Assembly (NCBI RefSeq): GCF_001570565.1
Contig: NZ_BBXE01000013.1
Span: forward strand, 264,984 to 328,983
Source: Herbidospora yilanensis
GTDB lineage: Bacteria; Actinomycetota; Actinomycetes; Streptosporangiales; Streptosporangiaceae
Length of the DNA: 64,000 nt
Reading direction: 5' to 3'
Part shown: positions 29,201 to 48,935 of the stretch, in pieces
Numbering within the stretch: position 1 is the stretch's first letter
How the letters are laid out: each line of letters begins with the position of its first letter
Notes under the pieces: generated by a model
Seen by the model: the letters and a program-made list of their open reading frames with translations, nothing else
What the model was told of the DNA's origin: nothing
The model's database searches: none
Program-made: the position numbers and the translations under genes

Positions 29201-30999
29201 TCCGACAGCGGCGCCGAGAGGGCCACGGTCGTGATCGCCTCGGCCTCCTCCGCGAGCGCGGAGACCGTGGCGTGGAAACCGGCGAACGCGTCGTCGCGTT
29301 GCAGGTCGGCGACCACCTGGGCGGCGGTCTCGGTCACCTGCCGCGCCACGGCCGAGGCGAGCGCGTCGAGGGCCGGGAGGTCGGCGTACCGGCGTTCGCG
29401 CAGTGTCACCAGGTGGCCCTGGGTCTGCCGCAGTTCGGCCAGCCGGGTGACGCCGGTCGAGCGGATCCCGGTGAAGCGGTCGCGGGCCTCGGCCACCGCC
29501 CGGGCGGCGTCCTCGGTCAGGCGCTGCACGTTCTCGAACTCGTCGAGCACCTGCTCCGCCGTCGCCCGCAGGGCCGCCAGCGGCTCGGCGAGGTCGTGTT
29601 CGCCGAGCCAGTGGTAGGCGTCGGAGATGCGGTCGCAGCCGGCGATCAGCGCCTCGAAGACGGCCTGCGCGGGCGCCATCTCGCCGACCATCCGGGCCAC
29701 CGACAGGCAGTCGGAGATGCCCCTGACCAGCTCCCCGTTGCCGATGCGCTCCAGCGGGCCGGTGCCGACCGGGGTGGCCGACTCGACCGCGAACGGGGTG
29801 TCCCACACCTGCATCGGGTGCACCCGCGACGGCTCGTCGGAGGTCCCCCGGAACACCACCAGCGTGCCGTCGTCGAACAACGAGTAGCCGTGACACGGCA
29901 GCGGGTTGGCGACCTCCTTGCGGATCACGTTGTACGGAAGCAGGAGGTATCGCCCCTCCTCCCGCGCGTGGAAGACGTAGAGCACGTCCTCCTCGCCCTG
30001 GATGGCCCGCTCGAACTCCAGCGCCGCCACGTCGGTCTCGAACGTCTTGGCCACGCCGGTCGTCAGGTAGTAGCCGCCGGGGAAGATGACCCCCTGGTCC
30101 TCGGGGAGCCGCCGGCAGGCCTGCCCGATCCCGTCGAGCCTGGTCACGCTCCTGGTACGGGTGTTGAAGACCAGGTAACGCCAGTCGGTCTCCTTGTAGG
30201 GCCGGATCTTGAGCAGGATCAGCGGCCCGACCCGCGCGTGGAACACGTCGGCGTCGGCGAGGCTCTGGAGCCGCTCGGTGACCGGTTCGGAGTAGACGCC
30301 CTCCCCCGACTCGGTGTTGTTCTCGACCTTGATGGTCAGGTCGCCGCCGACGGTCTCGACGAACAACTCGCCGCCGATGGAGATGTGCGGGTGCCGCCCG
30401 AGCACGTGGTCGTCGCGGGTGGTCTCGACCCACTCGAAGTCGTGGGAGGGCGGCAGGACGTGGTCGCGCTCGCCCCGCGAGTCGAGATAGGACAACGCGC
30501 CGTCGGCCGCCATCGTCCAGCGCAGCACCCGGACGTCCTGCGGCCCGGTCTGGAAGATCGCCAGGAGCTTGCCCTCGATCTTCCGCAGTTGCAGCAGCCG
30601 GGTGTCCTTGTAGTAGCGGTAGAGCTCGGCGAAGTCCTTCTCGAAGGCCGGGTCGCCGAGCACGCTCTCCGAGCCCGAGAAGGTGAAGGCGTCGCCGTCG
30701 CGGGAGAAGCGGTGGAAGGAGAAGACGTCGGAGACGCTGGTCCGCGGGCGCAGGCCGATGAACACGTTGTAGCCGAAGATCATGGTGTCGCCGGCGGAGA
30801 CCACGTCCCGGGGCACGCAGTTGTTCTCGGTGCGGATGCGCTCGGTTCCCACCAGCCGCATCTCCGAGCCGCCGAACACCGCGAGGCGCCGGGTGTTGAG
30901 CTCCCCGGCCCGGCCGGCCAGTTCCTTGGCCTGCTCGGCCAGCCGGGCGCGGAGGATCTCGTAGGTGCCGGCGTCGAGCCCGGTCATCCCCAGGGTCAC
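26278..30999 (-). CDS. Giant (1573 aa) flotillin-associated AAA+ ATPase of unknown function
   Basis: Track ORF whose GTG start overlaps the flotillin stop (GTGA). The N-terminal ~450 aa look beta-rich and the middle ~600 aa are long helical or coiled segments. The AAA module reads LLLISPPGYGKTTLMEYVASRLG (Walker A) ... NVLLYLDDIQH (Walker B) ... FAVCMAGNPY. Confidence 0.8.
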   Translation of the reverse strand: MTLGMTGLDAGTYEILRARLAEQAKELAGRAGELNTRRLAVFGGSEMRLVGTERIRTENNCVPRDVVSAGDTMIFGYNVFIGLRPRTSVSDVFSFHRFSRDGDAFTFSGSESVLGDPAFEKDFAELYRYYKDTRLLQLRKIEGKLLAIFQTGPQDVRVLRWTMAADGALSYLDSRGERDHVLPPSHDFEWVETTRDDHVLGRHPHISIGGELFVETVGGDLTIKVENNTESGEGVYSEPVTERLQSLADADVFHARVGPLILLKIRPYKETDWRYLVFNTRTRSVTRLDGIGQACRRLPEDQGVIFPGGYYLTTGVAKTFETDVAALEFERAIQGEEDVLYVFHAREEGRYLLLPYNVIRKEVANPLPCHGYSLFDDGTLVVFRGTSDEPSRVHPMQVWDTPFAVESATPVGTGPLERIGNGELVRGISDCLSVARMVGEMAPAQAVFEALIAGCDRISDAYHWLGEHDLAEPLAALRATAEQVLDEFENVQRLTEDAARAVAEARDRFTGIRSTGVTRLAELRQTQGHLVTLRERRYADLPALDALASAVARQVTETAAQVVADLQRDDAFAGFHATVSALAEEAEAITTVALSAPLSERLAAQSDGLEALIEVVGTLEVEATARTVILEKVGAVLAEINRVRATLDARRRELLDAEGRAEFAAEFGLLGQAVTAGLTGADTPEKCDERLGRLLLQIEGLESRFGEFDDFLAQLERKREEVYEAFSARKQTLLDDRARRADRLAESADRILGTVRRRSATLASLDEVNAYFAADPMVAKLRAVAADLRELGDPVRADELDGRVRAARQEAGRALKDRTDLFDGDTVKLGRHRFAVNTQPLDLTLVPHEGSLSFAVTGTDYRAPVTGFDDTRHFWDQLLVSETTEVYRAEYLAASLFPVEGDPAEAVRRAAESRYDEGYERGVHDHDTVRILDVVTRLHASAGLLRHLPSARATAQFFWAHGNPSATWEIRAQSLTRARELFGGGTEALNTLAEELASAIEAHGCLDGPASLAADYLIEELASPPAGFVTSTAARSFLDAFREALGPERFAAFTAELSTLDLPARIQLARAWLAAFGKGEVSPEVVSLLLCDLPRYESAATLDGVVEGLLGAHPRIRGRSMEIRLDEFLARTRIFRAERVPAYRDYQRRRAELVAAEKKRLRLDEYRPKVMDSFVRNALIDQVYLPLIGDNLAKQLDHGMGLLLLISPPGYGKTTLMEYVASRLGLVFVKVNGPALGHEVTSVDPADAPDATSRSEVEKISFALEMGSNVLLYLDDIQHTSPELLQKFISLCDAQRRMEGVWNGTARTYDLRGKRFAVCMAGNPYTESGQVFRVPDMLANRADVWNLGEVLSGKDDLFALSYIENALTANSVLAPVSDHGEVEKLVRLARGEGSADQLSHPYSTVELDQILSVLRKMLRLQEVVLANNRAYIASAAQSDASRTEPPFLLQGSYRNMNKLAQRVVPVLTDAELEGVIDDHYLGEAQTLTSGAEANLLKLAELRGVLTDEQKVRWEEVKAAYRRAKAMGGDDDDPTTRTVSAITHLADRLSGAITSLNDGRRGGEPIEERYSVPE

Positions 31000-33005
31000 T
31001 TCTCGACCGGGGTGATCGCCGGGCCGCCGCCGTTCTTCATGAGGGTGGCGAGGAACGCCGACACGGTCATGTCACGGACGGCGCCCGAGTCGACCCCGGA
31101 CACGATCTTGGCGAGGTCGGCGCTGAGACTGGCGTCGCCGTTCAGGTAGGGGTCGGCGAGGGTGCGGGCCACCTCGGAGTTGTCGACGAAGCCGTCGATG
31201 CTCTTGCCCATGGTCACCGCGCCGACGAGCTTGTCGAAGAAGACGCTGTCGCCGCCGACGATGTCGATGTTGGCCTTCGACAGACCGGCCGACAGGACCT
31301 CGGCCTGCGCCTCGGCGACCCTGCGGTGCACCTCGACCCCGGCCAGGCGGATCTCCTTCTCGGCCTCCAGCCGCAGGCGGTACTCCTCGTGGACGCGGCT
31401 CGCGTCGGACATCGCGGCCAGCGCGGCGGCCTTCTCGGTGAGACCCTCGGCCTCGGCCTTCAGCTTCTCGCCGACCATCATCGCGGCGGCCACGGCCTTG
31501 GCCTGCTCGCCGTCGGCCTCGGCCTTCAGCCGCTCGCGGGTGCCCTCGGCCGACGCCATGGCCTTCTCGCGTTCGACGATCGCCTCGGCCTTGCCGACCT
31601 TCTCGATCGCGGCGGCCGTGCGCTCCTTGACCTGCACCTCGGCCAGGCCCGTCGCGGCGGCCTCGGCCTGCACGCCCTCGGCGAGGCGGATCTTGGCGCG
31701 GGCGTCGAGCTCGGCGGCCTGCTGGCGCGACTCGGCCAGCACCAGCGCCTCACGCGCCCTGAACTTCGACGCGGCCTCGGCGGCCTCGGCGGCCTTGATG
31801 TCCTTGACCAGGTTCTCCTGCGCCTCGGCCTCGGCGGCGATGATGACCGACTGGCGGGTGCGCTCGGCCTCCTCGACGACGCGCAGGCGCTTGATCTGCT
31901 CCTCCTGCTCGGCCACCGTCTTCTCGACCGCGATGCGCTCGCGCATGACCTCGGCGATCGAGCGCTTCTCGACCTCCAGTTCCTTCTCCTTGGCGATGCG
32001 CGACAACTCGGTCTCCCGCTCCCGGGCGATGACCTCCAGCAGGCGGTCCTTCTCGATGCGCTCGCTCTCGATGGCGATCACGCGCTCGCGGTTCTTCTCG
32101 GCGACGGCGACCTCGCGGGCCTTGTTCTCGCTCTGGACGCCGATCTGCTCGTCGGTCTTGATCGCGGCGGCCTGGGCCTTGAGGCGCTCCTCGGCGCGGA
32201 CCCGGGAGATCTCCGCCTCCTCGCGGGCCCGCATGGTCTCGACCTCGCGCTTCTGCTTGATCTCGGCGTCGGCCTGGCGGCGCTCCAGTTCGAGGATGGC
32301 CTCCCGGGCGTCGACGTTCTGCCGGGTGATCTCCTTCTCCTCGTTGCGCTGGAACTCGTTGGTCCGCACGTGCTCGATCGCGGTCAGCTCGGTGATCTTC
32401 CGGATGCCCTGGGCGTCGAGGATGTTGGCCGGGTCGAGCTTGGACAGCGGCGTCTGCTCCAGGTAGTCGATGGCCGCGTCCTCCAGCGAGTAGCCGTTGA
32501 GGTCGGTGCCGATGACGCGGATGATCTGGTCGCGGAACTCGTCGCGCTGGGTGTAGAGGTCGACGAAGTCGAGTTGCTTGCCGACGGTCTTGAGCGCCTC
32601 GGAGAACTTGGCGTTGAACAGGGCCTGGAGGGTCGACTCGTCGCTGGCCCGGGCGGTGCCGATGGCCTGGGCGACCTTCACGACGTCCTCGGCGGTCTTG
32701 TTCACCCGCACGAAGAAGGTGATCTTGATGTCGGCGCGGATGTTGTCACGGCAGATCAGGCCCTCGTGGCCGGACCGCTCGATCTCGATGGTCTTCACCG
32801 AGATGTCCATGAACTCGGCCTTGTGCAGCACCGGTAAGACCACGGCGCCGGTGAAGGTGACGTCGACCCGGCGCACCTTCGACACGATCAGGGCCTTGCC
32901 CTGCTCGACCTTGCGGAACAACCGGCTGACCACGATCACCAGTGCGATGACGACGATCAGGACGACCGCGATGAGTATGCCGGCTCCCGCCGAGATGACG
33001 TCCAT
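30996..33005 (-). CDS. Flotillin-family SPFH/Band-7 protein (YqiK/FloT-like)
   Basis: An N-terminal TM (GILIAVVLIVVIALVIVV) precedes the SPFH domain (ALIVSKVRRVDVTFTGAVVLPVLHKAEFMDISVKTIEIER...). A ~300 aa Ala/Glu/Arg/Lys-rich coiled-coil flotillin region follows. Confidence 0.9.
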   Translation of the reverse strand: MDVISAGAGILIAVVLIVVIALVIVVSRLFRKVEQGKALIVSKVRRVDVTFTGAVVLPVLHKAEFMDISVKTIEIERSGHEGLICRDNIRADIKITFFVRVNKTAEDVVKVAQAIGTARASDESTLQALFNAKFSEALKTVGKQLDFVDLYTQRDEFRDQIIRVIGTDLNGYSLEDAAIDYLEQTPLSKLDPANILDAQGIRKITELTAIEHVRTNEFQRNEEKEITRQNVDAREAILELERRQADAEIKQKREVETMRAREEAEISRVRAEERLKAQAAAIKTDEQIGVQSENKAREVAVAEKNRERVIAIESERIEKDRLLEVIARERETELSRIAKEKELEVEKRSIAEVMRERIAVEKTVAEQEEQIKRLRVVEEAERTRQSVIIAAEAEAQENLVKDIKAAEAAEAASKFRAREALVLAESRQQAAELDARAKIRLAEGVQAEAAATGLAEVQVKERTAAAIEKVGKAEAIVEREKAMASAEGTRERLKAEADGEQAKAVAAAMMVGEKLKAEAEGLTEKAAALAAMSDASRVHEEYRLRLEAEKEIRLAGVEVHRRVAEAQAEVLSAGLSKANIDIVGGDSVFFDKLVGAVTMGKSIDGFVDNSEVARTLADPYLNGDASLSADLAKIVSGVDSGAVRDMTVSAFLATLMKNGGGPAITPVEK

Positions 33006-33007
33006 GA

Positions 33008-33517
33008 CTACAGGCCCCCTTCGTAAGGCATGACCCAGAAGAACTCGCCTTCCGCGTCATATTGGAAGATCAGCGCGGCCCCGCCCGCGCGGAAGACGTC
33101 GACGCCGGTCTGGCGCACCTGGATGACCGAGGTCGAGCCGTCGACGGCGCGGATCTCGGCCTGACCGAAGTCGGTGGAGACCGACTGGGTTCTGATGACG
33201 CAGATCTGCCCGACGAAGTCGTGCCGTGAGGGCACCTTCTCGGGCGCGGGCGTGAGGCGGCGTACCAGGAACGCGGCCCCGAGGCCCAGGACGAGCGCGG
33301 CGGCCAGGACCACCCAGCCGAGCGCCGGAAACAGCACGGATCCGGCCAGCGCGGCGAACCACCCCGTGGCCACGAACCCGGAGACCTCGGCCGCGGGCAG
33401 ACCGTCGAGGTCGACCACGCCGAAGGCCACGAGCAGCCAGAACCCGATGACGACGATCAGCGCGAAGCTGAACAGGACAGCCGGGAAGCCTAATGCGGCG
33501 TCCACGAAATCGCGCAA
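33008..33517 (-). CDS. NfeD/YqiJ-like membrane protein with a C-terminal OB-fold
   Basis: TTG start with AAAGGGGA upstream. It has 3-4 TM helices, then a soluble beta tail (GQICVIRTQSVSTDFGQAEIRAVDGSTSVIQVRQ...). Its stop lies 2 nt before the flotillin ATG. Confidence 0.75.
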   Translation of the reverse strand: MRDFVDAALGFPAVLFSFALIVVIGFWLLVAFGVVDLDGLPAAEVSGFVATGWFAALAGSVLFPALGWVVLAAALVLGLGAAFLVRRLTPAPEKVPSRHDFVGQICVIRTQSVSTDFGQAEIRAVDGSTSVIQVRQTGVDVFRAGGAALIFQYDAEGEFFWVMPYEGGL

Positions 33518-35789: not shown

Positions 35790-38102
35790 ATGTATGGGGG
35801 GAACCTCCCCCCAATACTGCTGGACGTGAGCGATTCGGCCGACCTTCCGCAGTTCCCCGGTGTCCTGGACACCGTGCGCGCCTGGCTCTCCTCCGCCGAT
35901 CCCCGGCCCCTCGTGCTGACCGGGCCGCCCGGCAGCGGCACCGCGGCGTTGCTGGCCCGGCTCGGCGAGCACCTCGCCGGAGAGCCGTCCGTCGTCGTCC
36001 GCGACGACCTCTGCGACGACCCCGCCCGGTTGCCGGCGCGGCCGGGTCTCCGCGTGATCACCCGGGCCCGCCGCCGGCACGACGGGCTGCTCTCCCTTCC
36101 GGTGCGGCCCCTGCGCGGCCACGGCCCCGACAGCGAGGTGGTCCGGTACTTCCTGCGGTGCCTGCGCCGCCACGACCCGACCGCCGTCGTCGCGGCCGAG
36201 GACCTGTCCCAGGTGAGCGAGGTCTGCGCGGCCTCGTTCGGGCTGTCCGCCGACGTCGACCTGCTGGCCGGGCTGGTCGCCCGCTACGGCCTGGCGGCCG
36301 TGCGCGACGCGGTCGCCGAGGACCACCAGCGCACCCGGCTGGCCGGGCTGCTCGGCGACGCCCACGGCCACCACGACCTGAGCGGCGACGAGATGGTCGT
36401 GCTGGCCTCGATCCTGGCGCTGCCGGGCGGGGCGAGCGAGAACGTGCTGCGCCACTCGTTGCCGCGGTGCGACATCGGCGGGCTGACCGCCTCCCTGGTC
36501 GAGCGCGGCCTGGTGGTGCGCGCCGAGCCCCGGCGCTGGCACCTGCGGGTGAGCGGCTTCCCGGCGGCGAGCTGGTGCGCCGCGCGGCCGGAGGTGTCGC
36601 TCGACGCGATCCGCCAGGCGCAGGCCGACTACCTGTCGGGCCAGGTCGCGCGGCTGGCCGCGGGTGTCTTCACCGACCACCAGCGGGCCGTGTTCGCCGA
36701 GTTCGACCACGAGCGGCGCAACCTCAACGCCGCCGTCGCCGAACTCGTCGGCGGCGGCCGGTACGCCCAGGCCGTCGCCCTCATGCGGGACGCCCTGCCG
36801 TTGCTGGCCCGCACCTCCGGCGTGGCCGGGCTGCTGCCGCACCTGCTGCCGGTCATCCGCAGGTACGCGCCCGCGACCCCGGCCGAACGGCACACGTTGT
36901 CGCGGCTGGCCGTGCGGGTGTTCGCGGCCGGAGGGGAACAGGAGGCCGCCGCCGTCTGCTTCGACGCGCTGCCGGAGACCGACCCGGACGTGCCGCTGCT
37001 GGCGGCCCTCGTGCACGCCGTGCCCGACCCGGAGGAGCTGGCCGCCTGCGTGCGGACCGCCCGCGAACAGGGCGACGCGGTCCGGCTGGGCGAGTCGGTC
37101 GGCGAGTACGTCGCCTGCCTGGCCCGGCTGCGCCGGTTCGACCGCGCCGACGCCGAATGCCGTACCGCCCTGTTCGAGGCGATGTGCGGCGGGGACGACC
37201 ACGCCGCGGCCTCGTTGCTGCTCTGGCGCGCGGCCGCCGCCACCGCCCTGGCCACCGGCGACAGCCGCCTGTACGTCGAACGGGCCCTCGCCAAGCTGCT
37301 GCCCCTCGGCCCGGCGGCGGCCATGTCGGCCATCGCCGCCGTGGTCGACGGACGCCACCAGCGCGACCTCCAGCAGAGCGCCGTCGACCTGGCGATGGTC
37401 GCCGGGTCGCTCGGCCGGGCCTGCGCGGCCGAGACGGAGCGTCCGGTCGAGGTCGGCGGGCTGCTGACCGGGCGCATCGGCGTCCGGCCGCTGCGCCGCT
37501 GGGTGACGGCGGGAGAGGGGGTCGACCTCGCCGACCTGCTGTGCGAGATCCTCCAGCGCAGGTTCGGCGACGACCCGGCCGCCCCCCGGCCGGTGCCGCA
37601 GGGCTCCGTCGACCCGAGGGTGCTGCGGGAACGGTCGCGGCTGACCGCCCGCGAGTCGGAGGTCGCCGGGCTGGTCGCGACCGGCCTGACGAACAAGCAG
37701 ATCGCCCGCCGGTTGCGCATCTCCGAGTGGACGGTGGTCAACCACCTGCGCCAGGTGATGCGCAAGCTCGACTGCGCCTCCCGGGTCCAGGTCGCCCGCT
37801 GGGTGCACGATCTGGAGGCCGGGTCAGCCCGTCTCGAACCGGCCGACGGCGACGGTGTGCAGCAGGGCCGGGTCGACCAGCGAGGCGAAGTCGGCCGTGA
37901 CGAGGTCGGCGTCCAGCGCGGCCAGCAGCCCGAGGTGCCGGTCGACGTACTCCGGGGGGTCGATGCCGCACGAGAGGAGTTCCGCGTACTGCTGGGTCAC
38001 GGCCAGGGTGGACTCGTACAGTTCGGGCGCGGCGGCGAGCATGCGGTCCCTGACCCGCGTGACCAGCCCCCCGTCGACGTCACCCTCGCGGAGCTGCGTT
38101 AA
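35790..38102 (+). CDS. Large LuxR-family regulator (LAL-like, degenerate P-loop) with a ~90 aa tail antisense to the next gene
   Basis: The N-terminus LVLTGPPGSGTAALLARL is Walker-A-like but lacks the Lys. A helical-repeat middle region follows. The C-terminal LuxR HTH reads LTARESEVAGLVATGLTNKQIARRLRISEWTVVNHLRQVMRKLDCASRVQVARWV. The frame stays open to 38102. Confidence 0.75.
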   Translation: MYGGNLPPILLDVSDSADLPQFPGVLDTVRAWLSSADPRPLVLTGPPGSGTAALLARLGEHLAGEPSVVVRDDLCDDPARLPARPGLRVITRARRRHDGLLSLPVRPLRGHGPDSEVVRYFLRCLRRHDPTAVVAAEDLSQVSEVCAASFGLSADVDLLAGLVARYGLAAVRDAVAEDHQRTRLAGLLGDAHGHHDLSGDEMVVLASILALPGGASENVLRHSLPRCDIGGLTASLVERGLVVRAEPRRWHLRVSGFPAASWCAARPEVSLDAIRQAQADYLSGQVARLAAGVFTDHQRAVFAEFDHERRNLNAAVAELVGGGRYAQAVALMRDALPLLARTSGVAGLLPHLLPVIRRYAPATPAERHTLSRLAVRVFAAGGEQEAAAVCFDALPETDPDVPLLAALVHAVPDPEELAACVRTAREQGDAVRLGESVGEYVACLARLRRFDRADAECRTALFEAMCGGDDHAAASLLLWRAAAATALATGDSRLYVERALAKLLPLGPAAAMSAIAAVVDGRHQRDLQQSAVDLAMVAGSLGRACAAETERPVEVGGLLTGRIGVRPLRRWVTAGEGVDLADLLCEILQRRFGDDPAAPRPVPQGSVDPRVLRERSRLTARESEVAGLVATGLTNKQIARRLRISEWTVVNHLRQVMRKLDCASRVQVARWVHDLEAGSARLEPADGDGVQQGRVDQRGEVGRDEVGVQRGQQPEVPVDVLRGVDAAREEFRVLLGHGQGGLVQFGRGGEHAVPDPRDQPPVDVTLAELR

Positions 38103-39089
38103 CACCCGGGTGATCGCCTCGGCGGCGGCGGGGGCGCGGCCGGCGTCCACGAAGCCGCTGACGATGAACACCCCGCCGGAGAAGAACGGCATGAACCGGG
38201 CCTCGATGCCGTAGCTGGCCCCCATCCGGCCGCGCAGTTCGCGGTTGAGCAGGGAGTCGGGGCCGCCGCCGAGCAGTTCGCCCGCGACCCGGGCCGACGG
38301 CCAGCGCGGGTCGAGCCGGTCGACCGCGAAGCCGCCCAGCACGAGCCGGGTCTGGGGGCCGCCCCGGCCCGGCCGGTGCGTGCGGCCGGGCGTGTCCGCC
38401 GGGAGCGGCGGGACGTCGGCGAGGGGCAGGTCGTCCCCGGCGGGCACGCCGGCGAACGCCTTCGCGGCGGCGTCGGCGGCGCCGGTCCCGGCCAGGTCGC
38501 CGGCCACGACCAGGGTCATCCGGGCGGCGCCGGGCACGACGGCGGCGACGTCGTCCAGGGTCAGCGTGCGCCAGACCGCCTCGGTGCCGCCGAGCGGGCG
38601 GCCGTACCGGGAGCCGGGGGCCAGCACCGACTCGTGCACGAGTTTGTTGCCGAGCGCGATCGGGTCGTCGGACTCCATGGCCCGTTCGGCCACGACCTGG
38701 CGGCGCAGCGCCTCGAACGAGCGGGCCGTCGGCGTGAAGGGGTGCACCATCGCGGCCATCGCCTCGAACAACCGGGGCAGTTCGGCGGCCGGGCAGTCGC
38801 CCATGACGATCGGGCCCCGGTGCCCGCACCGCGTGGTGACCATCCCGCCCGCCAGGGCGAGGTCGCCGACGGTCCCGTCGCGGTGGTGCGGCGCGTCGGC
38901 GTTGAGCAGCGCCGCGTACGCCGCCACCACCCCCTCGGTCTCCGGGCGTTCGACCGCCGTGGTCGGCAGCAGGATCGACAGGGCGGCGGTGGCGACGTGC
39001 CGTCCGGGCATGTCGGCGAGCAGCACCCGCAGGCCGTTGTCCAGCGTGAACGTCTCCGGCTGCGGGAAACGCCAGGTCACAGGATCCAT
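37824..39089 (-). CDS. M16-family peptidase-like subunit lacking the HxxEH zinc motif
   Basis: Internal start MDPVTWRFPQPETFTLDNGLRVLLADMPGR in track ORF 37824..39449-. It has the two-lobe M16 fold signature but no HxxEH. It overlaps the upstream M16 gene by 13 nt. Confidence 0.75.
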   Translation of the reverse strand: MDPVTWRFPQPETFTLDNGLRVLLADMPGRHVATAALSILLPTTAVERPETEGVVAAYAALLNADAPHHRDGTVGDLALAGGMVTTRCGHRGPIVMGDCPAAELPRLFEAMAAMVHPFTPTARSFEALRRQVVAERAMESDDPIALGNKLVHESVLAPGSRYGRPLGGTEAVWRTLTLDDVAAVVPGAARMTLVVAGDLAGTGAADAAAKAFAGVPAGDDLPLADVPPLPADTPGRTHRPGRGGPQTRLVLGGFAVDRLDPRWPSARVAGELLGGGPDSLLNRELRGRMGASYGIEARFMPFFSGGVFIVSGFVDAGRAPAAAEAITRVLTQLREGDVDGGLVTRVRDRMLAAAPELYESTLAVTQQYAELLSCGIDPPEYVDRHLGLLAALDADLVTADFASLVDPALLHTVAVGRFETG

Positions 39090-40258
39090 GAGGGTTCTCC
39101 GGCGGCGTGGAAGGCGACGACCGACGGCCGTGCCATCGGCCCGGCGGCCAGCGCGGCCACCTCGGCGTTGGTGACCCGGCGGACGGCGTCGAGCCGCGTG
39201 GTGACCCCGGCGGCGTCGCCCGACCAGGCGTGTTCCCGGCACAACTCCTCGGCGAGTGTGCGGGCGGCCCCGAGGGCCCCGAGTTGTTCCCTGATGCGCA
39301 GGGCCTTGGCGGCGGCCAGCACGTCGGGCGGCAGCCCGTCGCGGGCCACGGCGGCCAGACGGGCGGCGACGTCCCGTTCGAGCGCGGCCAGGTCGGCCGA
39401 GGCCGGGACCGACAGCTTGACCAGGCCGATCGACGGGCCGAGCGCGCACCGGGCGTGCTGGCCGAGCGCGCCGAGCAGGCCGGGCCGCGAGCCGAGCACC
39501 GACCAGGGGGCGCTGGCCAGCGCCGCCATCACCACCTCGGCGGCGGCCGATCCCGGCGGCAGGGCGAAGGTCAGCCGCACCATGGACGTCGGCTGGCCCT
39601 CCTCGACGTCCTCCCGCGCGCCCAGCGGCTCCCCGGTGACCGGCGGCGGGGCCGGCCGGCCCGAGGGAAACCCGGCCAGGTGGTTCCCGGCGATCTCCAC
39701 GGCCGCGTCGGGGTCGGCCGCGCCGACGACCGACACGACCAGCCGGTCGGCGCCGTAGTGGGCCTCCACGAACGTGGCCACGTCGTCGGGCGTCACGGCG
39801 GCGACCTCGGCGGGGTCGCCGACCGGCGGGCGGCCCGCCGGGTGGTCGCGCCCGAATAACAACCGCAGGCCGCGCCGCAGCCCCGACCCGAACCGGCCGG
39901 GTTCGTCGCGTTCGCGGATCTCCTCCAGCACGATCCGGCGGTGTCCCGCCAGCACGTCCCCGGTCACGCCGCGCCGGCCGCGCCGCACCCGGTCGCCGGC
40001 CTCGGCCAGCATCGCCGGGAGGGTGACCGCCGGGCCGGTCGCCACGTAGTTCGTGGACTCGTAGCCGGTGGTGGCCTGCGCCGAGCCGTTCTCGGACATG
40101 ACGTGCTCGACCACGTGAGCCAGGCCCGACCTGCCGATGGGGTCGTGCAGGGAGCCCGCGCCGTGCCAGGCGTTGACCGCGACGAAGCCGAGCCCCGGGT
40201 CGGGCCGCACGACCAGGGTCGCGCCGCCCGGCAGCCGGCGGGTGACCAGCCCGTCCAT
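39077..40258 (-). CDS. M16-family zinc metallopeptidase (pitrilysin/insulinase type)
   Basis: Internal start MDGLVTRRLPGGATLVV in track ORF 39077..40792-, with the inverted zinc motif GLAHVVEHVM (HxxEH). The start shares one base with the ABC gene stop (TGATG). Confidence 0.8.
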   Translation of the reverse strand: MDGLVTRRLPGGATLVVRPDPGLGFVAVNAWHGAGSLHDPIGRSGLAHVVEHVMSENGSAQATTGYESTNYVATGPAVTLPAMLAEAGDRVRRGRRGVTGDVLAGHRRIVLEEIRERDEPGRFGSGLRRGLRLLFGRDHPAGRPPVGDPAEVAAVTPDDVATFVEAHYGADRLVVSVVGAADPDAAVEIAGNHLAGFPSGRPAPPPVTGEPLGAREDVEEGQPTSMVRLTFALPPGSAAAEVVMAALASAPWSVLGSRPGLLGALGQHARCALGPSIGLVKLSVPASADLAALERDVAARLAAVARDGLPPDVLAAAKALRIREQLGALGAARTLAEELCREHAWSGDAAGVTTRLDAVRRVTNAEVAALAAGPMARPSVVAFHAAGEPSWIL

Positions 40259-41994
40259 CACGCGCCCACGGGGGCGGGGGCCGCCTGGGCGTGCACGAAC
40301 GCCTGGTAGGCGGGGCTGGCCGACGACAACGTGCCGTGGTCGCCCACGGCGGTGACGCGGCCGGCGTCGACGACCACGATCGTGCCGGCCGCGGCGACCG
40401 TCGACAGGCGGTGGGTGACCATCACCACGGCCCGGTCGCGGCCCAGGTCGGCGAGCAGGTCGGTGAGCCGCCGTTCGTTGACGCCGTCCATGTGCGCGGT
40501 CGGTTCGTCGAGCAGCAGGATCTCGGCGTCGGTCAGCAGGGCGCGGGCGATGGACAGGCGCTGCTCCTCGCCGCCGGACATCTGGTCGCCCGCGCCGAGC
40601 ACCGCGTCCAGCCCGGCGGGCAGGGCGCGCACGGCCTGCTCCAGGCCGACGTCGCGCAGCGCGGTCCACAACTCGTCGTCGGACGGGGCGTCCGACCGGC
40701 CCAGCGTCAGGTTCTCGCGCACGGTCATGGACAGGATCGCCGACCCCTGCTCGACCAGGGCGACCCGGCGGCGGGCCTCGGCTGTCGGCCACTCGTGGAG
40801 GGGCGCGCCGAGGAGCTCCACCCGCCCGGCGTCGGTCTCGACGAAGCCCTCCACCACGTTGAGCAGAGTCGACTTGCCCGCTCCCGACGGTCCGACGATC
40901 GCCAGCACCCCGGTGCGCGGCACCTCAAGAGACACCCCGTCGAGCACCGGCTTGCCGCCGAGCGACACCACGACGTCCGAGAGCCGCAGCGCCGGCGCGC
41001 CCGGCGTCACCTCGGGCGCGCGGGCCGCCCCGGCCGGTTCGGTCTCCGCGCCGAGCACCTCGTCGACCCGCCGCGCGGCGGCCTTGCCGACCGCGATCCT
41101 GCCCGCGCCCTGCGCCAGCGCCATCAGCGGGTTGACGAGCTGGAACAGGTACATCAGGAAGGCGATGAACGCCGTGGTCTCCAGCGCGCCCGAGGCCAGG
41201 CGCACCCCGCCCACGGCGAGCACGCCGATGATGGCGACCTGCTGGCCCAGGCCCATCAGCGGGCTGATCGCCGCCTGGGCCCGCGCCGAGCGCACCGCCG
41301 ACGCCGCCGCCTCGCCGATCTCGTTCTCCAGCGGGGCGATGGCCCGGTCCTCCGCCCGGTACGCCTTGACCGTCGTCACCATCGTGAACACCGACTGCGC
41401 GGCCTGGGCCAGCCGGCCGAGCGCGGCCTGCTGCGCCTCGGCCGCCCGGCGCATGCCCGCCAGGAAGGCCCTGATGGCGATCGCGGCCACGACGAACGTG
41501 CCGACCGTCACGGCCAGCATCACCCAGTCGAGGATGCCCATCACGATCAGGTACGCCGTCACCATCACCGCCGAGACCGGCATGACCGTGACGCCCGTGT
41601 CGGTGATCGCGCGCATCTGGGCGGCGTCGGGCCCCATCCGGGAGACCACCTCGCCCACGCCGATCCGCCGGATCACCGGCACCCGCAGGCGCACCGCCCG
41701 GCGCACCACGGCCAGGCGCACGTCCTCGATGGCCCGTTCCCCGGCCGCGCTCAGCAGGTAGGACGACCAGCCTCCGGCGAACGCCCCGGCCAGCACGATC
41801 ACGACGAGCTGCGCCACCGGCCAGACGACGTCCCCGCCCGTCCCGCCGATCACGCCCAGGATGCGGGCGATCAGCAGCGGCGTGACGATCCCGGCCGCGG
41901 CCGAGACCAGGGCGAGCACCACCGAGGCGGCCAGCCGGCCCCGCCGCGCCCTAACCGACCGGGACAACAACCCGAGTGTCGGCGACTCCGCCAT
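40258..41994 (-). CDS. ABC exporter, fused permease and ATPase (type I exporter)
   Basis: Six N-terminal TM helices. Walker A is GPSGAGKST, the signature is MSGGEEQRLSIARAL and Walker B is ILLLDEPTAHMD. Confidence 0.9.
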   Translation of the reverse strand: MAESPTLGLLSRSVRARRGRLAASVVLALVSAAAGIVTPLLIARILGVIGGTGGDVVWPVAQLVVIVLAGAFAGGWSSYLLSAAGERAIEDVRLAVVRRAVRLRVPVIRRIGVGEVVSRMGPDAAQMRAITDTGVTVMPVSAVMVTAYLIVMGILDWVMLAVTVGTFVVAAIAIRAFLAGMRRAAEAQQAALGRLAQAAQSVFTMVTTVKAYRAEDRAIAPLENEIGEAAASAVRSARAQAAISPLMGLGQQVAIIGVLAVGGVRLASGALETTAFIAFLMYLFQLVNPLMALAQGAGRIAVGKAAARRVDEVLGAETEPAGAARAPEVTPGAPALRLSDVVVSLGGKPVLDGVSLEVPRTGVLAIVGPSGAGKSTLLNVVEGFVETDAGRVELLGAPLHEWPTAEARRRVALVEQGSAILSMTVRENLTLGRSDAPSDDELWTALRDVGLEQAVRALPAGLDAVLGAGDQMSGGEEQRLSIARALLTDAEILLLDEPTAHMDGVNERRLTDLLADLGRDRAVVMVTHRLSTVAAAGTIVVVDAGRVTAVGDHGTLSSASPAYQAFVHAQAAPAPVGA

Positions 41995-42970
41995 CGGACC
42001 CTCCCCTCGCGCGCACGGCGGCGAAGATCTCGCGCAGGTCGCGCATGCACTCGTCCTGGCCGTACATGTTGTTGACCGAGCTGGGGTTGACGACCACCTC
42101 GTCCACCCCCAGGTCGTGGTACTTGGCGATCTCGTCGGCGATGTGGTCGGGGTCGCCGTAGACGTACACCCCGGCCTGGACGAGTTCCCTGGCGCCCGAC
42201 ACCGGGTCGGAGGCGTCCACGTCGAGGCCCGCCCTGCGCAGCATGTCGGTGTAGTGGGGGGCCGACAGGTGGCTGATGCTGCCGTACTGGGCCAGCAGGT
42301 TGGCCGACCGGCCGGGCCGGGCGACGGCCGCGTGCACGACCGACACGATGCGCGGCGGCGGCTGCACCCCGGCCGCGCCCTGCGCGACGGCCGGCATGAC
42401 GACGTCCTCGATGTACTTGAGCGGCGTCAGCCACGTCATCGCGAGGTCGCCGCAGCGGCCGGTGACCCGGGCCATGGCGGGCCGCAGCACCCCCGCGCCG
42501 ATCTCCACCGGCGGGCAGTCCATCGGCGGCAGCGCGGCGTCGACGGTGAAGTGCTCTCCCTTGTGCCGCACGTGCTCGTTGCGGGCCAGCCGGCGGGCGA
42601 CGTCGATGAACTCGCCGACGATCGCGGCCGGTCTGGCGTACGGCTCGCCGCGCAACTGCGTCACGTACTGCGGGTAGGCGGCGCCGTAGCCGATCGCCAC
42701 CGGTTGTCCCATGAGCCGGGCCAGCGACCGGGCCTGCAACGCCGCGTCGTACGGGTGGCGCAGCACGATCAGCCCGACGGCCATGCCGATCGAGATCCGG
42801 CAGCCCGTCCCGGCCAGGTAGGCGACCGCCGGGTGGGACTCGATCCGCAACGACTGCCCGAGCCACAACCGCGCCGCGCCGATCTCCTCGGTCAGCCGGC
42901 CGTACGGGACGATCGTGTCCGGGTCGGTCGGCTGGTGCGGGAACATGAACGACACCTTGCGCGAGCTCAC
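41951..42970 (-). CDS. LLM-class (luciferase-like) flavin/F420-dependent oxidoreductase, candidate LanJ-type dehydroamino-acid reductase
   Basis: The C-terminal ~339 aa of track ORF 41951..43954-. The GTG start overlaps the upstream stop (GTGA), giving VSSRKVSFMFPHQP... (first beta-strand of the LLM TIM barrel). It continues ...LWLGQSL...IGMAVGLIVLRHPYDAA...GDPDHIADEIAKYHDLGVDEVVV. Confidence 0.75.
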   Translation of the reverse strand: MSSRKVSFMFPHQPTDPDTIVPYGRLTEEIGAARLWLGQSLRIESHPAVAYLAGTGCRISIGMAVGLIVLRHPYDAALQARSLARLMGQPVAIGYGAAYPQYVTQLRGEPYARPAAIVGEFIDVARRLARNEHVRHKGEHFTVDAALPPMDCPPVEIGAGVLRPAMARVTGRCGDLAMTWLTPLKYIEDVVMPAVAQGAAGVQPPPRIVSVVHAAVARPGRSANLLAQYGSISHLSAPHYTDMLRRAGLDVDASDPVSGARELVQAGVYVYGDPDHIADEIAKYHDLGVDEVVVNPSSVNNMYGQDECMRDLREIFAAVRARGGSDGGVADTRVVVPVG

Positions 42971-43938
42971 GACGCCACCTCCACCAGCGGGCTGTCGGCG
43001 TTGCGGTGCGGCGCGAGCGGGTCGGCGTTCGCCTCGGCGAGCGCCTCGGCGACGGCCTCGGCCAGGTCGCGGCCGTCGAACAGGTGCCGCGCCACGCCGT
43101 CGGCGACCGCCATCGTGCGGTGCTGGCCCAGGCTCATGCGGTCCCATCCGGGCCGGGTGTCGCGCGGCTCCCAGCCGTACGCGACGCCGTCGGCGATCGG
43201 GCTGGTCATCACCGAGTGGGCCGGGTTCAGGCCGGGCAGGTTCCGCACCGCCGCGACGAGGCCGCCCACGGCGTGCCACGACTCCTCGGTCAGGTAGACG
43301 ACGATCGCGTCCCGCCTCGGATACTGGTCGGCCTTCGCCAGCACCTTCGCCCGGTAGGTCGCCCCGGCGCCCTCCAGCCGACTCAGCACCGCGTGCCACA
43401 CGGCGGGCGCCATCGACGGCTCGTCGACGTGCAGGTAGATCCGCAGCATGTGGCCGCCGGCCCCGTGGCCGCCCGCCGAGCCGTTGACCAGGAAGAACCC
43501 GGGAGAGAGCGTCGGCCTGATCGCGGGCAGCTCCAGCGTGGTGCGGGTGCCGATCTCCGGCAGCGGCGTCGGGCTCTCGCCCCCGGGGATGCGCAGGCGC
43601 ACCCGGCCGACGTCGAAGAGCACGTGCCGGCCGAGCGGGCCGTCGATCATGGCCGACCGAACGACCGCCGGGGTGCGGCTGGTGCGGTGGGGGGTGGCCT
43701 CCCGCAGGAGGTCCTCGAAGTCGTAGTCGCGGCGCGGGTCCCACTCGCCGGTCCTGACGGCCGAGCCGCTGTGCCAGTGGCGGTAGAGCACCGGCCCGAG
43801 GTCCTGGCGCAACCGGGTGCGGTTGTCGCCCGTGACCGTCTCGTCCCCGACGGTCACCGACCGGGTGTCGGGGTCGAGGCGCAGGTCGCCGAGCAGGTGG
43901 TCGAGCCGGTCGAGGAGACCCTGGTGGGCGATGGTCAT
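42967..43938 (-). CDS. HopA1-effector-family protein, candidate phospho-Ser/Thr lyase (LxmY/TvaD-like)
   Basis: Internal start MTIAHQGLLDRLDHLL in track ORF 42967..44727-, 323 aa. It sits between an APH-type kinase and an LLM reductase, as in class V lanthipeptide and thioamitide clusters. Motifs such as MLRIYLHV, YRAKV and PRRDAIVVYL match my memory of the HopA1 family, but this was not verified by search. Confidence 0.6.
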   Translation of the reverse strand: MTIAHQGLLDRLDHLLGDLRLDPDTRSVTVGDETVTGDNRTRLRQDLGPVLYRHWHSGSAVRTGEWDPRRDYDFEDLLREATPHRTSRTPAVVRSAMIDGPLGRHVLFDVGRVRLRIPGGESPTPLPEIGTRTTLELPAIRPTLSPGFFLVNGSAGGHGAGGHMLRIYLHVDEPSMAPAVWHAVLSRLEGAGATYRAKVLAKADQYPRRDAIVVYLTEESWHAVGGLVAAVRNLPGLNPAHSVMTSPIADGVAYGWEPRDTRPGWDRMSLGQHRTMAVADGVARHLFDGRDLAEAVAEALAEANADPLAPHRNADSPLVEVAS

Positions 43939-43940
43939 GA

Positions 43941-45047
43941 TCAGTTCTCTCCAAGGCCGATGGTGGGGGCGAACTTCTCCGGCGTCGTGAGCGCGTTGCG
44001 GCCGATCCCGGCCATGCCGCGCTCCACCGCGCTGAGCCGCGCGCCGTGCACGGCGCCCGCGAGCAGCCGGTCGAAGAAGTGCCACCCGATGTAGCCGGTG
44101 GCCCGCACGGCCAGGCCCTCGTCCGGCTCGGCGACCTCCCGGTAGCCCTGCCAGAAGCGGCGGATGTGCTCGCGCACGGCCGACAGGTGCCGGTCGCCCG
44201 CGGCGACGATCGCCTCGTGGGCGGCGCCCGGCGACAGGCCCGTGTCCAGGTCGAGCTCGCGGAACATGCGCGCCACCGCGTGGTGCACGAACTCGCCCGC
44301 GAAGGCCCCGACGTCCCGGGCCGGGTCGTGGTGCCGGAACTCCTCCCAGTCGATGACGTACAGGTCGTCGCCGGAGCACAGGAACTGGTCCAGGCGCAGG
44401 TCGCCGTGGGTGACGGTGGCGGGGGCGGCGGCCGAGACCCGGTGCAGCGCGGCGAGCGCCTCGACCAGCACCTTGTCGTGCTGGAGCAGCGCCCACGCCT
44501 CGACCTCGCCGCCGCTGCAGTTGGCGTAGTCCTCGGGGCTCAGCGCGTAGAAGGCGTTGGCCCGGCGGTCGTCGGCCGACTCGGGCAGGTCCTCGGCGCG
44601 CGGCAGCGAGTGCACCTCGCCCAGCACCCGGCCCATCCGGTGGGCCAGCTCGACGTCGAGCTCCCCGGCCGCCAGCAGGTCGGAGGCGGCGCGGGAGTCC
44701 GGCACGTACTCGAAGACCAGCAGGCATTCGCCGGCGTCGGCGCCGTGGAAGGCCGGCACCCGCAGCTCGGCCGTCGCACGGCCGGCGATCAGCCGCTGGA
44801 AGGCCAGCACCCGGTCCATCCGGGCGGCGGCGTGCGCGCGGTCCCCCCGCAGGCGCTTGACGAACAGGTCGGGTCCCTCGGCGGTCGGCACCAGCCAGTT
44901 GTCGTTGCGGCCGAGGAAGCCGCGCATGCCCTCCACGATGGGCGTGGCCCCGCTGAGCGAGGCGACCGCCTGGACGAACTCCTCCGGGCGCGACACCGGC
45001 CGGGCCGCGACCAGCCGGGTCGTCTGTGTTTCCTCTTTCACGTCCAT
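43941..45047 (-). CDS. APH/choline-kinase-fold phosphotransferase, candidate RiPP Ser/Thr kinase (LxmK/TvaC-like)
   Basis: The catalytic loop is VTHGDLRLDQFL and the metal-binding segment is YVIDWEEF. The nucleotide-lobe segment reads DLFVKRL...LLVFEYVP. The start is taken at MDVKEETQ (M18 of track ORF 43941..45098-) and is uncertain. Confidence 0.75.
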   Translation of the reverse strand: MDVKEETQTTRLVAARPVSRPEEFVQAVASLSGATPIVEGMRGFLGRNDNWLVPTAEGPDLFVKRLRGDRAHAAARMDRVLAFQRLIAGRATAELRVPAFHGADAGECLLVFEYVPDSRAASDLLAAGELDVELAHRMGRVLGEVHSLPRAEDLPESADDRRANAFYALSPEDYANCSGGEVEAWALLQHDKVLVEALAALHRVSAAAPATVTHGDLRLDQFLCSGDDLYVIDWEEFRHHDPARDVGAFAGEFVHHAVARMFRELDLDTGLSPGAAHEAIVAAGDRHLSAVREHIRRFWQGYREVAEPDEGLAVRATGYIGWHFFDRLLAGAVHGARLSAVERGMAGIGRNALTTPEKFAPTIGLGEN

Positions 45048-45246
45048 GCGCCGAAATCTATGGACGCGGAAAGGCCCCGCGACATCCCAGGAAAGCACCG
45101 GCAGCAGGCATATGGCAGATGCCTGACAGATCCTTGCCGGCCGGTGTTCCCGAATGGCAGTCGGCCGGTGACGCGGGCGCGCAAATCCTCGTCATTTCGC
45201 CAGGACCGGCGGCCTAGTTTCCTTTGTTCCGAAGGAAGGAGATCTC

Positions 45247-45387
45247 ATGTCCAGCGAACTCATCGCGGGATACGCGAACTACGCCAGCACCGAATCGGTC
45301 CTGAGCGAGAACACGACCGCCGAGTGGTGGCCGATCACGTCGTACACCGTCACGCTCTCCACGACGACCACCTCGATCTGGATCTGA
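45247..45387 (+). CDS. RiPP precursor peptide 1 (46 aa)
   Basis: Not in the track because it is under 60 aa. SD GGAAGGAGA lies 6 nt upstream. The sequence is MSSELIAGYANYASTESVLSENTTAEWWPITSYTVTLSTTTTSIWI. It shares its leader with four downstream paralogs. Confidence 0.8.
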   Translation: MSSELIAGYANYASTESVLSENTTAEWWPITSYTVTLSTTTTSIWI

Positions 45388-45397
45388 GGGGCGCGCC

Positions 45398-45538
45398 GTG
45401 TCCGAGCTGATCGCGGGTTACGCCAATTACGCCAGCACCGAGGCGGTGCTCCAGGAACGTTCCGAGGCCGGCCGCTGGATCGAGTGGACCCTCTGGTTCA
45501 CCGTCACCATCTCCGTCACCCCCACCTCCTCCCTCTGA
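45398..45538 (+). CDS. RiPP precursor peptide 2 (46 aa, GTG start)
   Basis: (M)SELIAGYANYASTEAVLQERSEAGRWIEWTLWFTVTISVTPTSSL. GAGGGG lies upstream, and the ORF starts 10 nt after the peptide 1 stop. Confidence 0.75.
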   Translation: MSELIAGYANYASTEAVLQERSEAGRWIEWTLWFTVTISVTPTSSL

Positions 45539-45559
45539 ACCTGCTGAGAAAGGAAGACC

Positions 45560-45709
45560 ATGTCCGAGCTGATCGCCGGTTACGCCAACTACGCCTCCAC
45601 CGAGGCCATCCTCCAGGAGCGGCAGCTCGCCGCCCGTGAGCCCGAGACCGGCCTGTTCACGCTCACCATCACGATCTCGCTGACCATCACGGTCACGATC
45701 AGCCTCTGA
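45560..45709 (+). CDS. RiPP precursor peptide 3 (49 aa)
   Basis: MSELIAGYANYASTEAILQERQLAAREPETGLFTLTITISLTITVTISL. The SD is GAAAGGAAG. Confidence 0.8.
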   Translation: MSELIAGYANYASTEAILQERQLAAREPETGLFTLTITISLTITVTISL

Positions 45710-45722
45710 CCAGGAGGTCCCG

Positions 45723-45872
45723 ATGCACGAGCTCGTCGCCGGATACGCGAACTATGCCTCGGCCGAGGCGATCCTGCGGGAACAGGCCGCCGGGCGTGTT
45801 CTCGAAGCGGGTCTCTTCTTCTCGGTGACCTTCAGCTTCACCCACAGCAATTCCATCTCCTTCTCCATCTGA
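45723..45872 (+). CDS. RiPP precursor peptide 4 (49 aa)
   Basis: MHELVAGYANYASAEAILREQAAGRVLEAGLFFSVTFSFTHSNSISFSI. The SD is AGGAGG. Confidence 0.8.
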   Translation: MHELVAGYANYASAEAILREQAAGRVLEAGLFFSVTFSFTHSNSISFSI

Positions 45873-45890
45873 CCGAAAGGAAACGGGCGA

Positions 45891-46046
45891 ATGAACGACC
45901 TCATCGCCGGATACGCCAACTACGCCTCCACCGAGGCCATCCTGCACGAGCGGCAGATCGCGAGCCGCGACGCCGAATCGATCAGCGCGACCGTGACGGT
46001 CACCTGGACCCTCACCGTCTCCTGGTCCTACTCCTGGTCCTACTAG
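45891..46046 (+). CDS. RiPP precursor peptide 5 (51 aa)
   Basis: MNDLIAGYANYASTEAILHERQIASRDAESISATVTVTWTLTVSWSYSWSY. The SD is GAAAGGAAA. Its TAG stop shares the CTAG palindrome with the convergent LuxR gene stop. Confidence 0.8.
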   Translation: MNDLIAGYANYASTEAILHERQIASRDAESISATVTVTWTLTVSWSYSWSY

Positions 46047-48934: not shown

Positions 48935-48935
48935 G

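Follow-up and report, generated by a model that had tools for sequence, protein, structure and literature searches.

A predicted heterodimeric M16 leader peptidase and its exporter in a Herbidospora cluster encoding precursors with alternating Ser/Thr residues

The window considered here is a stretch of 64,000 nucleotides (about 72% GC) from contig NZ_BBXE01000013.1 of Herbidospora yilanensis. In this stretch, two genes for proteins of the M16 peptidase family, hereafter called M16A and M16B, follow an ABC exporter gene at the end of an operon that begins with the genes of a kinase (LanK), of a lyase (LanY) and of an LLM-class oxidoreductase (LLM), and five precursor peptide genes are found nearby on the opposite strand. 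The best explanation of this arrangement, and a probable one in view of the sequences, is that M16A and M16B would form a heterodimeric leader peptidase which, together with the exporter, would serve a lexapeptide-like (class V) cluster for a peptide that is made by the ribosome and modified after translation (RiPP). M16A would supply the zinc site (H48, H52 and E113) and the catalytic base E51. M16B would supply the second half of the clam-shell chamber as well as a substrate-binding pair, R286 and Y293. An initial annotation had already placed two overlapping M16 genes after the exporter, within 37824-41994, and this is confirmed in position and in content. Its reading of the two proteins, the first with an HxxEH motif (GLAHVVEHVM) and the second with the M16 fold but no zinc motif, agrees with the sequences, with Pfam and with the structural models.

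The M16 pair and the exporter

The active-site motif of M16A, HVVEH, spans residues 48-52 within GLAHVVEHVM (residues 45-54). In an alignment of 11 M16A sequences, whose homologues are 46-94% identical, H48, E51, H52 and E113 are invariant. The HxxEH motif is also retained in the two most divergent members of the family (33-37% identity). The third zinc ligand is predicted to be E113, which falls on the zinc-binding Glu of MPP-beta from yeast when the two sequences are aligned. Peptidase_M16_C is recognized in M16A by Pfam (5.8e-11), and the best matches in the PDB at the sequence level are MPP-beta and 3amj_C, the active subunit of a Sphingomonas M16B-type heterodimer. The AlphaFold2 model (pLDDT 80, pTM 0.80) has 3ami_A, 4nnz and 1hr6 beta as top Foldseek matches, with template modelling (TM) scores of 0.83-0.86. 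Comparison with H. solisilvae gives a ratio of nonsynonymous to synonymous substitution rates (dN/dS) of 0.27, and M16A is under purifying selection. An N-terminal stretch, TRRLPGG, suggested that M16A might be secreted or exported by the twin-arginine translocation (Tat) pathway. This possibility was rejected, as judged from the sequence without a signal-peptide predictor: the stretch aligns with the first M16 beta-strand, charged residues come next and no hydrophobic h-region is present.

In M16B, the HxxEH motif is absent, as it is in all the homologues examined, and the helix equivalent to the HxxEH helix reads EGVVAAYAALL. Peptidase_M16_C is nevertheless recognized by Pfam (1.5e-17). The best PDB match at the sequence level is 3amj_B, described as a "zinc peptidase inactive subunit" (8.1e-13), and the AlphaFold2 model (pLDDT 87.6, pTM 0.85) is matched by Foldseek to 3gwb and 3amj_B with TM scores of 0.84-0.85. 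The models of M16A and M16B are both those of full-length two-domain M16 subunits, with TM scores of 0.83-0.87 to 3ami, 4nnz, 3gwb, 3amj and 1hr6. R286, Y293 and G294 are invariant in the M16B alignment, including in relatives that are only 26-27% identical, and the surrounding sequence, ELRGRMGASYG, aligns with eiRdkrglsYg of 3amj_B. Such an R/Y pair is known from Bcn-gP1 and PttP1 (PMC8960859). The dN/dS value of M16B with respect to H. solisilvae, 0.32, resembles that of LanK (0.28). Thus, the "inactive" subunit is also constrained.

Another feature of M16B concerns residues 88-100 (about 38790-38828, minus strand), where a segment C-x-H-R-G-P ... D-C-P common to the homologues occupies the place of the canonical NAxT..E.T.Y strand of the M16 N-terminal domain. 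H90 and G92 of this segment are invariant, and both of its cysteines are lost in some members (loci L006, L010, L019 and L022).

The exporter contains an ABC_membrane domain (residues 22-290) followed by an ABC_tran domain (residues 351-500). Over 529 residues, it is 41% identical to the exporter of the canonical class V lanthipeptide cluster of S. tuirus (L021). No C39 peptidase domain was detected in it, either by Pfam or with the bacteriocin cleavage/export models: its alignment to these models begins only at profile position ~125-216, that is, after the peptidase domain, which is therefore absent. A peptidase-containing ABC transporter (PCAT) was also considered and rejected, the protein having no C39 domain and its membrane domain starting already at residue 22.

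Open reading frames (ORFs) were resolved by frame plots of the GC content at third codon positions (GC3) and by inspection of start codons; domains were assigned with Pfam and NCBIfam (Table 1). LanK, LanY, LLM, the exporter, M16A and M16B are encoded, in this order, in one operon on the minus strand, from which the precursor block (45247-46046) diverges. The start of the exporter gene overlaps the LLM gene by 44 nucleotides. One base is common to the stop codon of the exporter gene and to the ATG of M16A (TGATG), and the ATG of M16B lies 13 nucleotides inside the 3′ end of the M16A gene. A scan of 37000-46300 for promoters and terminators returned nothing exceeding the shuffled expectation.

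Table 1. Features of the peptide cluster and of its surroundings (positions in the window).
Feature	Position	Strand	Basis
HxxEH zinc-binding/catalytic motif codons of M16A, H48-V-V-E51-H52	40103-40117	-	read from sequence
E113 codon of M16A, predicted third zinc ligand (LEEIR)	39920-39922	-	alignment to yeast MPP-beta
R286-Y293 codons of M16B (ELRGRMGASYG), R/Y substrate-binding pair of inactive M16B-type subunits	38211-38234	-	
LanK, APH-like Ser/Thr kinase, 368 aa	43941-45047	-	NCBIfam lant_syn_V_LxmK equivalog
LanY, HopA1-like phospho-Ser/Thr lyase, 323 aa	42967-43938	-	PF17914, 6.6e-41
LLM-class F420-type oxidoreductase, 339 aa	41951-42970	-	Bac_luciferase, 1e-32
ABC exporter, fused transmembrane and ATPase domains, 578 aa	40258-41994	-	Pfam
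M16A, putatively active M16B-type zinc peptidase subunit, 393 aa	39077-40258	-	HVVEH
M16B, non-catalytic M16 subunit, 421 aa	37824-39089	-	Peptidase_M16_C, no HxxEH
Five tandem precursors, presumed substrates	45247-45387, 45398-45538, 45560-45709, 45723-45872, 45891-46046	+	translations
LuxR-family regulator, convergent	35790-38102	+	GerE, 2.1e-18, residues 617-671
LAL-type regulator (AAA_16 and GerE), flanking the precursors	46043-48979	-	Pfam
Class II lanthipeptide synthetase LanM, 853 aa	49133-51694	-	DUF4135 and LANC_like

Precursors, modification and leader removal

The initial annotation had counted three precursors in the cluster, whereas the window holds five. Their cores are free of Cys and carry Ser or Thr at every second position (e.g., LFTLTITISLTITVTISL; LLSITITITITITITI in locus L010). 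Across the family, Cys occurs in only 3 of about 55 precursors. Precursors with alternating Ser/Thr are also seen at loci L001, L009-L015, L019, L020 and L022. The leader is conserved and reads x-E-L-[IFL]-A-G-Y-A-N-Y-A-S-T-E-A-I-L-x-E-[QR]-x-x-A-[AS]. It is followed by a linker that varies in sequence and in length. All five precursors of the window are matched by the LxmA_leader model, although weakly (15.2-23.5 bits, below the cut-off of 25). The Y-x-x-Y pattern in the AGYANYAS part of their leaders resembles Tyr -20 and Tyr -17 of the RosA1 leader, around which a helix is required for recognition (PMC12291118).

As for the modification enzymes, LanK passes the LxmK equivalog cut-off (364 vs 315 bits) and is 100% identical to an LxmK entry of Herbidospora yilanensis. 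Dehydration of Ser/Thr by the pairs CaoK/CaoY and RosK/RosY has been shown, together with the roles of the lyases CaoY and RosY (PMC9486802, PMC12291118). Among the proteins of the cluster, LLM is the best conserved, with 71-80% identity across genera and a dN/dS of 0.13. Its best NCBIfam matches are all F420-dependent LLM families, with scores below their cut-offs, and by family membership only it is a candidate dehydroamino-acid reductase of the LanJC type. No LanX cyclase, LanD decarboxylase or methyltransferase is encoded in the cluster, and neither a second APH-like gene, nor a flavoprotein, nor LanC is found inside the operon. Cores without Cys, in a cluster that has no LanX and no LanD, argue that the product is not a lanthipeptide. 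With LanK, LanY and LLM present, the alternating Ser/Thr residues rather predict linear peptides, either poly-dehydrated or with alternating D-Abu (D-2-aminobutyric acid) and D-Ala. This substrate family is a more unusual feature of the cluster than the M16/exporter module itself.

From these elements, a pathway in four steps may be envisaged. In the first step, LanK and LanY would dehydrate Ser and Thr residues of the five precursors, probably after recognition of the leader around its two invariant Tyr, the helix at this place being assumed by analogy with RosA1. In the second step, the F420-type LLM enzyme would reduce some or all of the dehydro residues. The M16A/M16B heterodimer would then remove the leader, a reaction placed in the cytoplasm because neither M16 subunit has a signal peptide. 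Finally, a homodimeric ABC half-transporter devoid of peptidase domain would export the mature hydrophobic peptide. These last two steps are proposed because of homology and synteny, and because the cluster contains no other protease according to Pfam and no other peptidase domain.

The site of the cut has been considered by comparing the junctions of 50 distinct precursors across the family. In three of the five precursors of the window, E-(A/T)-G immediately precedes the core (SEAG/RW, PETG/LF and LEAG/LF, the slash marking the start of the core); in the other two, the junctions are TAE/WW and DAE/SI. The initial annotation had taken E-(A/T)-G for a conserved and plausible cleavage site. It is indeed present in three peptides, yet directly before the core it occurs only in Herbidospora paralogues, which makes it weak evidence for a cut site and led us to reject it as a family-wide cleavage motif. 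In Streptomyces, the junctions read AEAGPD/SS, with P-D inserted between E-A-G and the core, and others are NE/SI, ME/SI, EQA/LL and QTE/LL. A cut after the Gly of E-(A/T)-G is conceivable for the three peptides of the window and unsupported as a rule for the family. A feature shared by 49 of the 50 precursors is an Asp or Glu as the final charged residue, after which comes an uncharged tail of 13-29 residues in which every second position is Ser/Thr. Near the junction, two Sphaerimonospora peptides have no acidic residue. By analogy with PttP1/PttP2, a cut close to an acidic residue followed by trimming would fit the variability of the junctions better. Cleavage would probably take place near the last acidic residue, inside the variable linker, and trimming by an aminopeptidase activity may follow, as with PttP1/PttP2.

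A bolder version of this scheme, which can be put forward only tentatively, is that the cluster represents an undescribed class of RiPPs, in which the M16 pair and the exporter would mature linear peptides with alternating D and L residues, free of Cys in the window. In this class, the Ser/Thr at every second position would be dehydrated by LanK/LanY and reduced by LLM to D-Ala or D-Abu. Elsewhere, D and L residues alternate in gramicidin A and in the polytheonamides. The protease would read no motif; it would cut the acidic linker and trim up to the first modified residue. Such a trimming would explain why the junction sequence varies freely. The recruitment of the M16 clade would then have been independent of that of the LxmP-type pairs. 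No description of this cluster type, or of RiPPs with alternating D residues made via LanK/LanY/LanJ, was found in a literature search that covered few subscription journals.

Orthologous clusters and the weighing of other readings

Loci were collected from the neighbourhoods of the M16 clade, from a genome scan with a LanK alignment and from look-ups of distant LanK proteins, and their contents were tallied by tblastn. About 20 loci were found in 185,579 species genomes and public protein collections. The gene order of the window recurs in 16 other loci, which is far beyond chance. Far from consistently lacking the M16 pair, the intact orthologous clusters carry it downstream of LanK-LanY-LLM in 16 of 17 cases, in about ten actinomycete genera, and one cluster of Streptomyces sp. 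HPF1205 (L014) is the sole exception. The 16 clusters with the pair come from Herbidospora, Sphaerimonospora, Streptosporangium, Rhizohabitans, Embleya, Streptomyces, Flexivirga, a metagenome-assembled genome and metagenomes. An exporter gene stands upstream of the pair in 15 of them.

The clade is small and well delimited. About ten close homologues each were found for M16A and M16B among 5.8 billion clustered proteins. In a profile search of 1.84 billion representatives, which returned 35991 M16 matches at E<=1e-3, the M16A clade scores 715-296 bits, and generic M16 proteins form a plateau below it, from 250 bits downwards. The nearest matches outside the clade are generic "pitrilysin/insulinase" proteins from Planctomycetota, Micromonospora and Streptomyces. 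All clade members with a readable neighbourhood are accompanied by 1-6 precursors, by the series LanK-LanY-LLM-ABC-M16A-M16B and by a convergent LuxR gene. The 13-nucleotide overlap of the M16A and M16B genes is kept in the window and at loci L001, L003-L008 and L020, over a range of 37% to 95% identity. This conservation fits an equimolar co-production of the two subunits.

The association is not rigid. In Flexivirga (L020), the M16 pair is kept and the exporter is absent from the operon. In the Streptomyces-type clusters (L002-L005, L015 and L019), three extra genes are inserted between the exporter and M16A (e.g., 8046-9986 in L003). They encode a PLDc_N-like protein of 69-73 residues, an ABC ATPase resembling DrrA and lantibiotic-protection proteins, and a membrane protein of 254-267 residues with no Pfam match; together they are probably a self-immunity transporter, which the Herbidospora cluster lacks. 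Finally, only fragments of LanK, LanY, M16A, M16B and LuxR are left in Actinacidiphila soli (L017, 9502-14183), a decaying cluster. The leader-removal and export module proposed in the initial annotation is thus upheld by motifs, structural homology, gene coupling, synteny and published clusters. However, the L014 and L020 loci and the Streptomyces-type insertions indicate that the exporter and the pair are not an indivisible unit.

Several observations weigh against a leader peptidase formed by the pair. The N-terminal Peptidase_M16 domain of M16A is only a sub-threshold match in Pfam (17.1 vs 22.3 bits). In the M16A clade, the segment after the HxxEH helix has 9-20 residues, compared with about 26 in canonical proteins, and because of this shortening H52 is separated from E113 by 61 residues instead of the canonical ~76. 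The structural Glu expected seven residues before the zinc-binding Glu (E-x6-E) is replaced by His106, the position being H, Q or E in relatives; this departure is minor and the zinc ligands are untouched. No conserved sequence motif is found at the leader-core junction, which leaves the specificity of the cut unexplained. At locus L014 (9148-15606), three intact precursors and LanK-LanY-LLM are followed directly by LuxR, with neither the exporter nor the M16 pair within 10 kb, so that the pair is not strictly required in cis. In the one class V pair compared, that of S. tuirus, the M16A profile gives the active subunit 79 bits, which is below more than 150 generic M16 proteins, and orthology with the LxmP-type pairs is therefore not established. 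Moreover, no assays of class V M16 pairs were found in the literature, where LxmP and RosP proteins are annotated as peptidases by prediction.

Some of these points would be accounted for if the pair were a peptide-clearing or self-protection enzyme similar to PreP or pitrilysin, the leader being removed by an unlinked housekeeping peptidase. Released leaders, unmodified or mis-modified precursors and mature peptide left in the cytoplasm would be the targets. The chambers of M16 enzymes such as PreP, IDE and pitrilysin are typically loose in their specificity and break down short, unstructured peptides. Such a specificity would agree with the lack of a junction motif, and the L014 cluster keeps its precursors and modification enzymes without the pair. 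Many lanthipeptide clusters do depend on unclustered proteases, whereas the RiPP-linked M16B-type pairs that have been characterised are all specific maturation proteases (PMC8960859). Furthermore, it is unexpected for a clearing enzyme to have a private clade that 16 of 17 clusters keep, with the 13-nucleotide coupling conserved, and the Flexivirga cluster keeps the pair though its exporter is absent. On balance, we regard a clearing function as improbable.

It may also be imagined that catalysis by the pair is impaired or lost and that the role of the pair is to bind the leader, as a scaffold or chaperone on behalf of the modification enzymes or the exporter. The M16-fold core proteins of the vertebrate cytochrome bc1 complex are indeed non-proteolytic, and the N-terminal domain of M16A is divergent, with its sub-threshold Pfam score, its post-HxxEH segment shorter by about 15 residues and its His in place of the structural Glu. 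However, invariance of H48, E51, H52 and E113 at 46-94% identity and retention of HxxEH at 33-37% would be unexpected if catalysis had been lost. The R/Y pair of M16B is conserved too, and the length of the shortened loop differs from one clade member to another, a sign that this loop tolerates change. A non-catalytic role consequently appears still more doubtful than a clearing one. As to the idea that exporter and M16 genes simply lie beside the precursors and do housekeeping work unrelated to them, the frequency of M16 pairs and MsbA-like ABC exporters in actinomycetes speaks for it, as the number of M16 matches given above illustrates, but it is hardly tenable and already contradicted by synteny, since the genes overlap one another and the upstream LLM gene, their order is seen again in about ten genera, amid neighbouring genes that differ, and no inspected member of the clade lies outside this cluster context.

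A leader peptidase alongside an exporter stays the preferred reading, and it has practical consequences. The likely leader peptidase and exporter of a rare, uncharacterised cluster family would be identified, and their co-expression would be needed to obtain a mature product. In addition, a small M16 clade with 50 distinct natural substrates and varied junctions would offer a good system for studying how M16B-type heterodimers choose their cut site. If the substrates become poly-dehydrated or D/L-alternating linear peptides, a new type of product would arise from known enzymes.

The surroundings of the cluster deserve a few remarks. The LuxR gene is the conserved convergent partner of the operon in 15 loci. 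In the window, its ORF overlaps the 3′ end of the M16B gene on the opposite strand by 279 nucleotides (37824-38102), and tail-to-tail overlaps are also seen at L002-L004 (48 nucleotides), L006 (173 nucleotides) and L022 (about 270 nucleotides). The GerE domain of this LuxR protein stops at residue 671 of 770 and GC3 within the overlap tracks the M16B frame, for which reason the tail of the LuxR ORF is probably a stop-codon-poor extension. On the other side, the stop codon of the fifth precursor (plus strand, ending at 46046) overlaps that of the convergent LAL regulator (minus strand, ending at 46043) by 4 nucleotides. A LAL regulator is found beside the cluster only in Herbidospora and Sphaerimonospora. 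In these two genera, LanM and LAL are kept together beside the precursors; the clusters of Streptomyces, Embleya and Flexivirga are without this pairing. No LanA with Cys was seen near LanM, the start of which is abutted by an HSP20 gene (51695-52174). Further away, the minus strand of 26278-33517 encodes an ATPase of 1573 residues (DUF3686, DUF7902 and AAA_5), then proteins of 669 and 169 residues without Pfam match. This stretch appears unrelated to the peptide cluster.

Comparison with known systems

M16 peptidases have been noted in several class V lanthipeptide clusters. For the lexapeptide cluster, a heterodimer of LxmP1 (inactive) and LxmP2 (active) was proposed (PMC8068269). RosP1/RosP2 of the rosin cluster (PMC12291118) and StnP (PMC11186320) are further cases, Cao15 is an example of a fused M16 protein, and genome mining had pointed to peptidases co-occurring with actinobacterial HopA1 clusters (bioRxiv 10.1101/2020.12.17.423248). 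As in the window, the LxmP and RosP pairs consist of one subunit with HxxEH and one without, and they are adjacent to LanK, LanY, a LanJ-type F420 reductase and ABC transporters. They have been proposed to remove a leader of the LxmA type (PMC8068269, PMC12291118). The class V cluster of S. tuirus has the same order as the window, active then inactive, with an overlap of 4 nucleotides. M16A is 28% identical to its active subunit (3e-12) and M16B 26% identical to its inactive one (7e-7), the matches being reciprocal by subunit type. Unlike class V lanthipeptide clusters, the cluster of the window has Cys-free cores and no LanX, LanD or methyltransferase.

Outside RiPP biosynthesis, Sph2681/Sph2682 of Sphingomonas sp. 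A1 (PDB 3amj) and the alpha and beta subunits of MPP share the fold and the division of labour of M16A and M16B. Identity with these proteins, which are not RiPP-associated, is only 16-21%, and M16A departs from them by having about 15 residues fewer after the active-site helix and His for the structural Glu. The heterodimer logic invoked in the initial annotation is retained in its MPP-like form, in view of the matches to 3amj and MPP-beta. Its PqqF/PqqG form is not: membership in this family was rejected because the score of the PqqF equivalog TIGR02110 is 16 bits, where 320 would be required. The ORFs scanned around the cluster (26-38 and 46-54.5 kb) include no pqq genes. PqqF/PqqG are alike in logic only, as an active/inactive M16 pair acting on a ribosomal precursor peptide. 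In function, the closest counterparts are instead LxmP1/LxmP2, RosP1/RosP2 and PttP1/PttP2. Concerning export, LanT and the PCATs are likewise half-transporters with ABC_membrane and ABC_tran domains that export RiPPs. In the window, the exporter is without their C39 domain; cleavage and export would therefore be split between proteins, with cleavage in the cytoplasm.

The closest experimental precedent is that of the class III pairs PttP1/PttP2 and Bcn-gP1/Bcn-gP2, for which physical interaction and specific leader cleavage were demonstrated. In these M16B-type pairs, modelled on 3amj, one subunit carries HxxEH and the other the R/Y pair (PMC8960859). With PttP1/PttP2, a cut after QAAD comes first and is followed by aminopeptidase activity of the same pair (PMC10885120). 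A cut after an acidic residue matches the Asp or Glu found before the core throughout the present family. The class III pairs differ in being from Firmicutes, in belonging to LanKC pathways and in being often encoded outside the cluster; they are likened here to M16A/M16B by motif and logic. The module of the window is, in this light, a divergent new case of a known arrangement, with pairs already annotated in class V and proven in class III.

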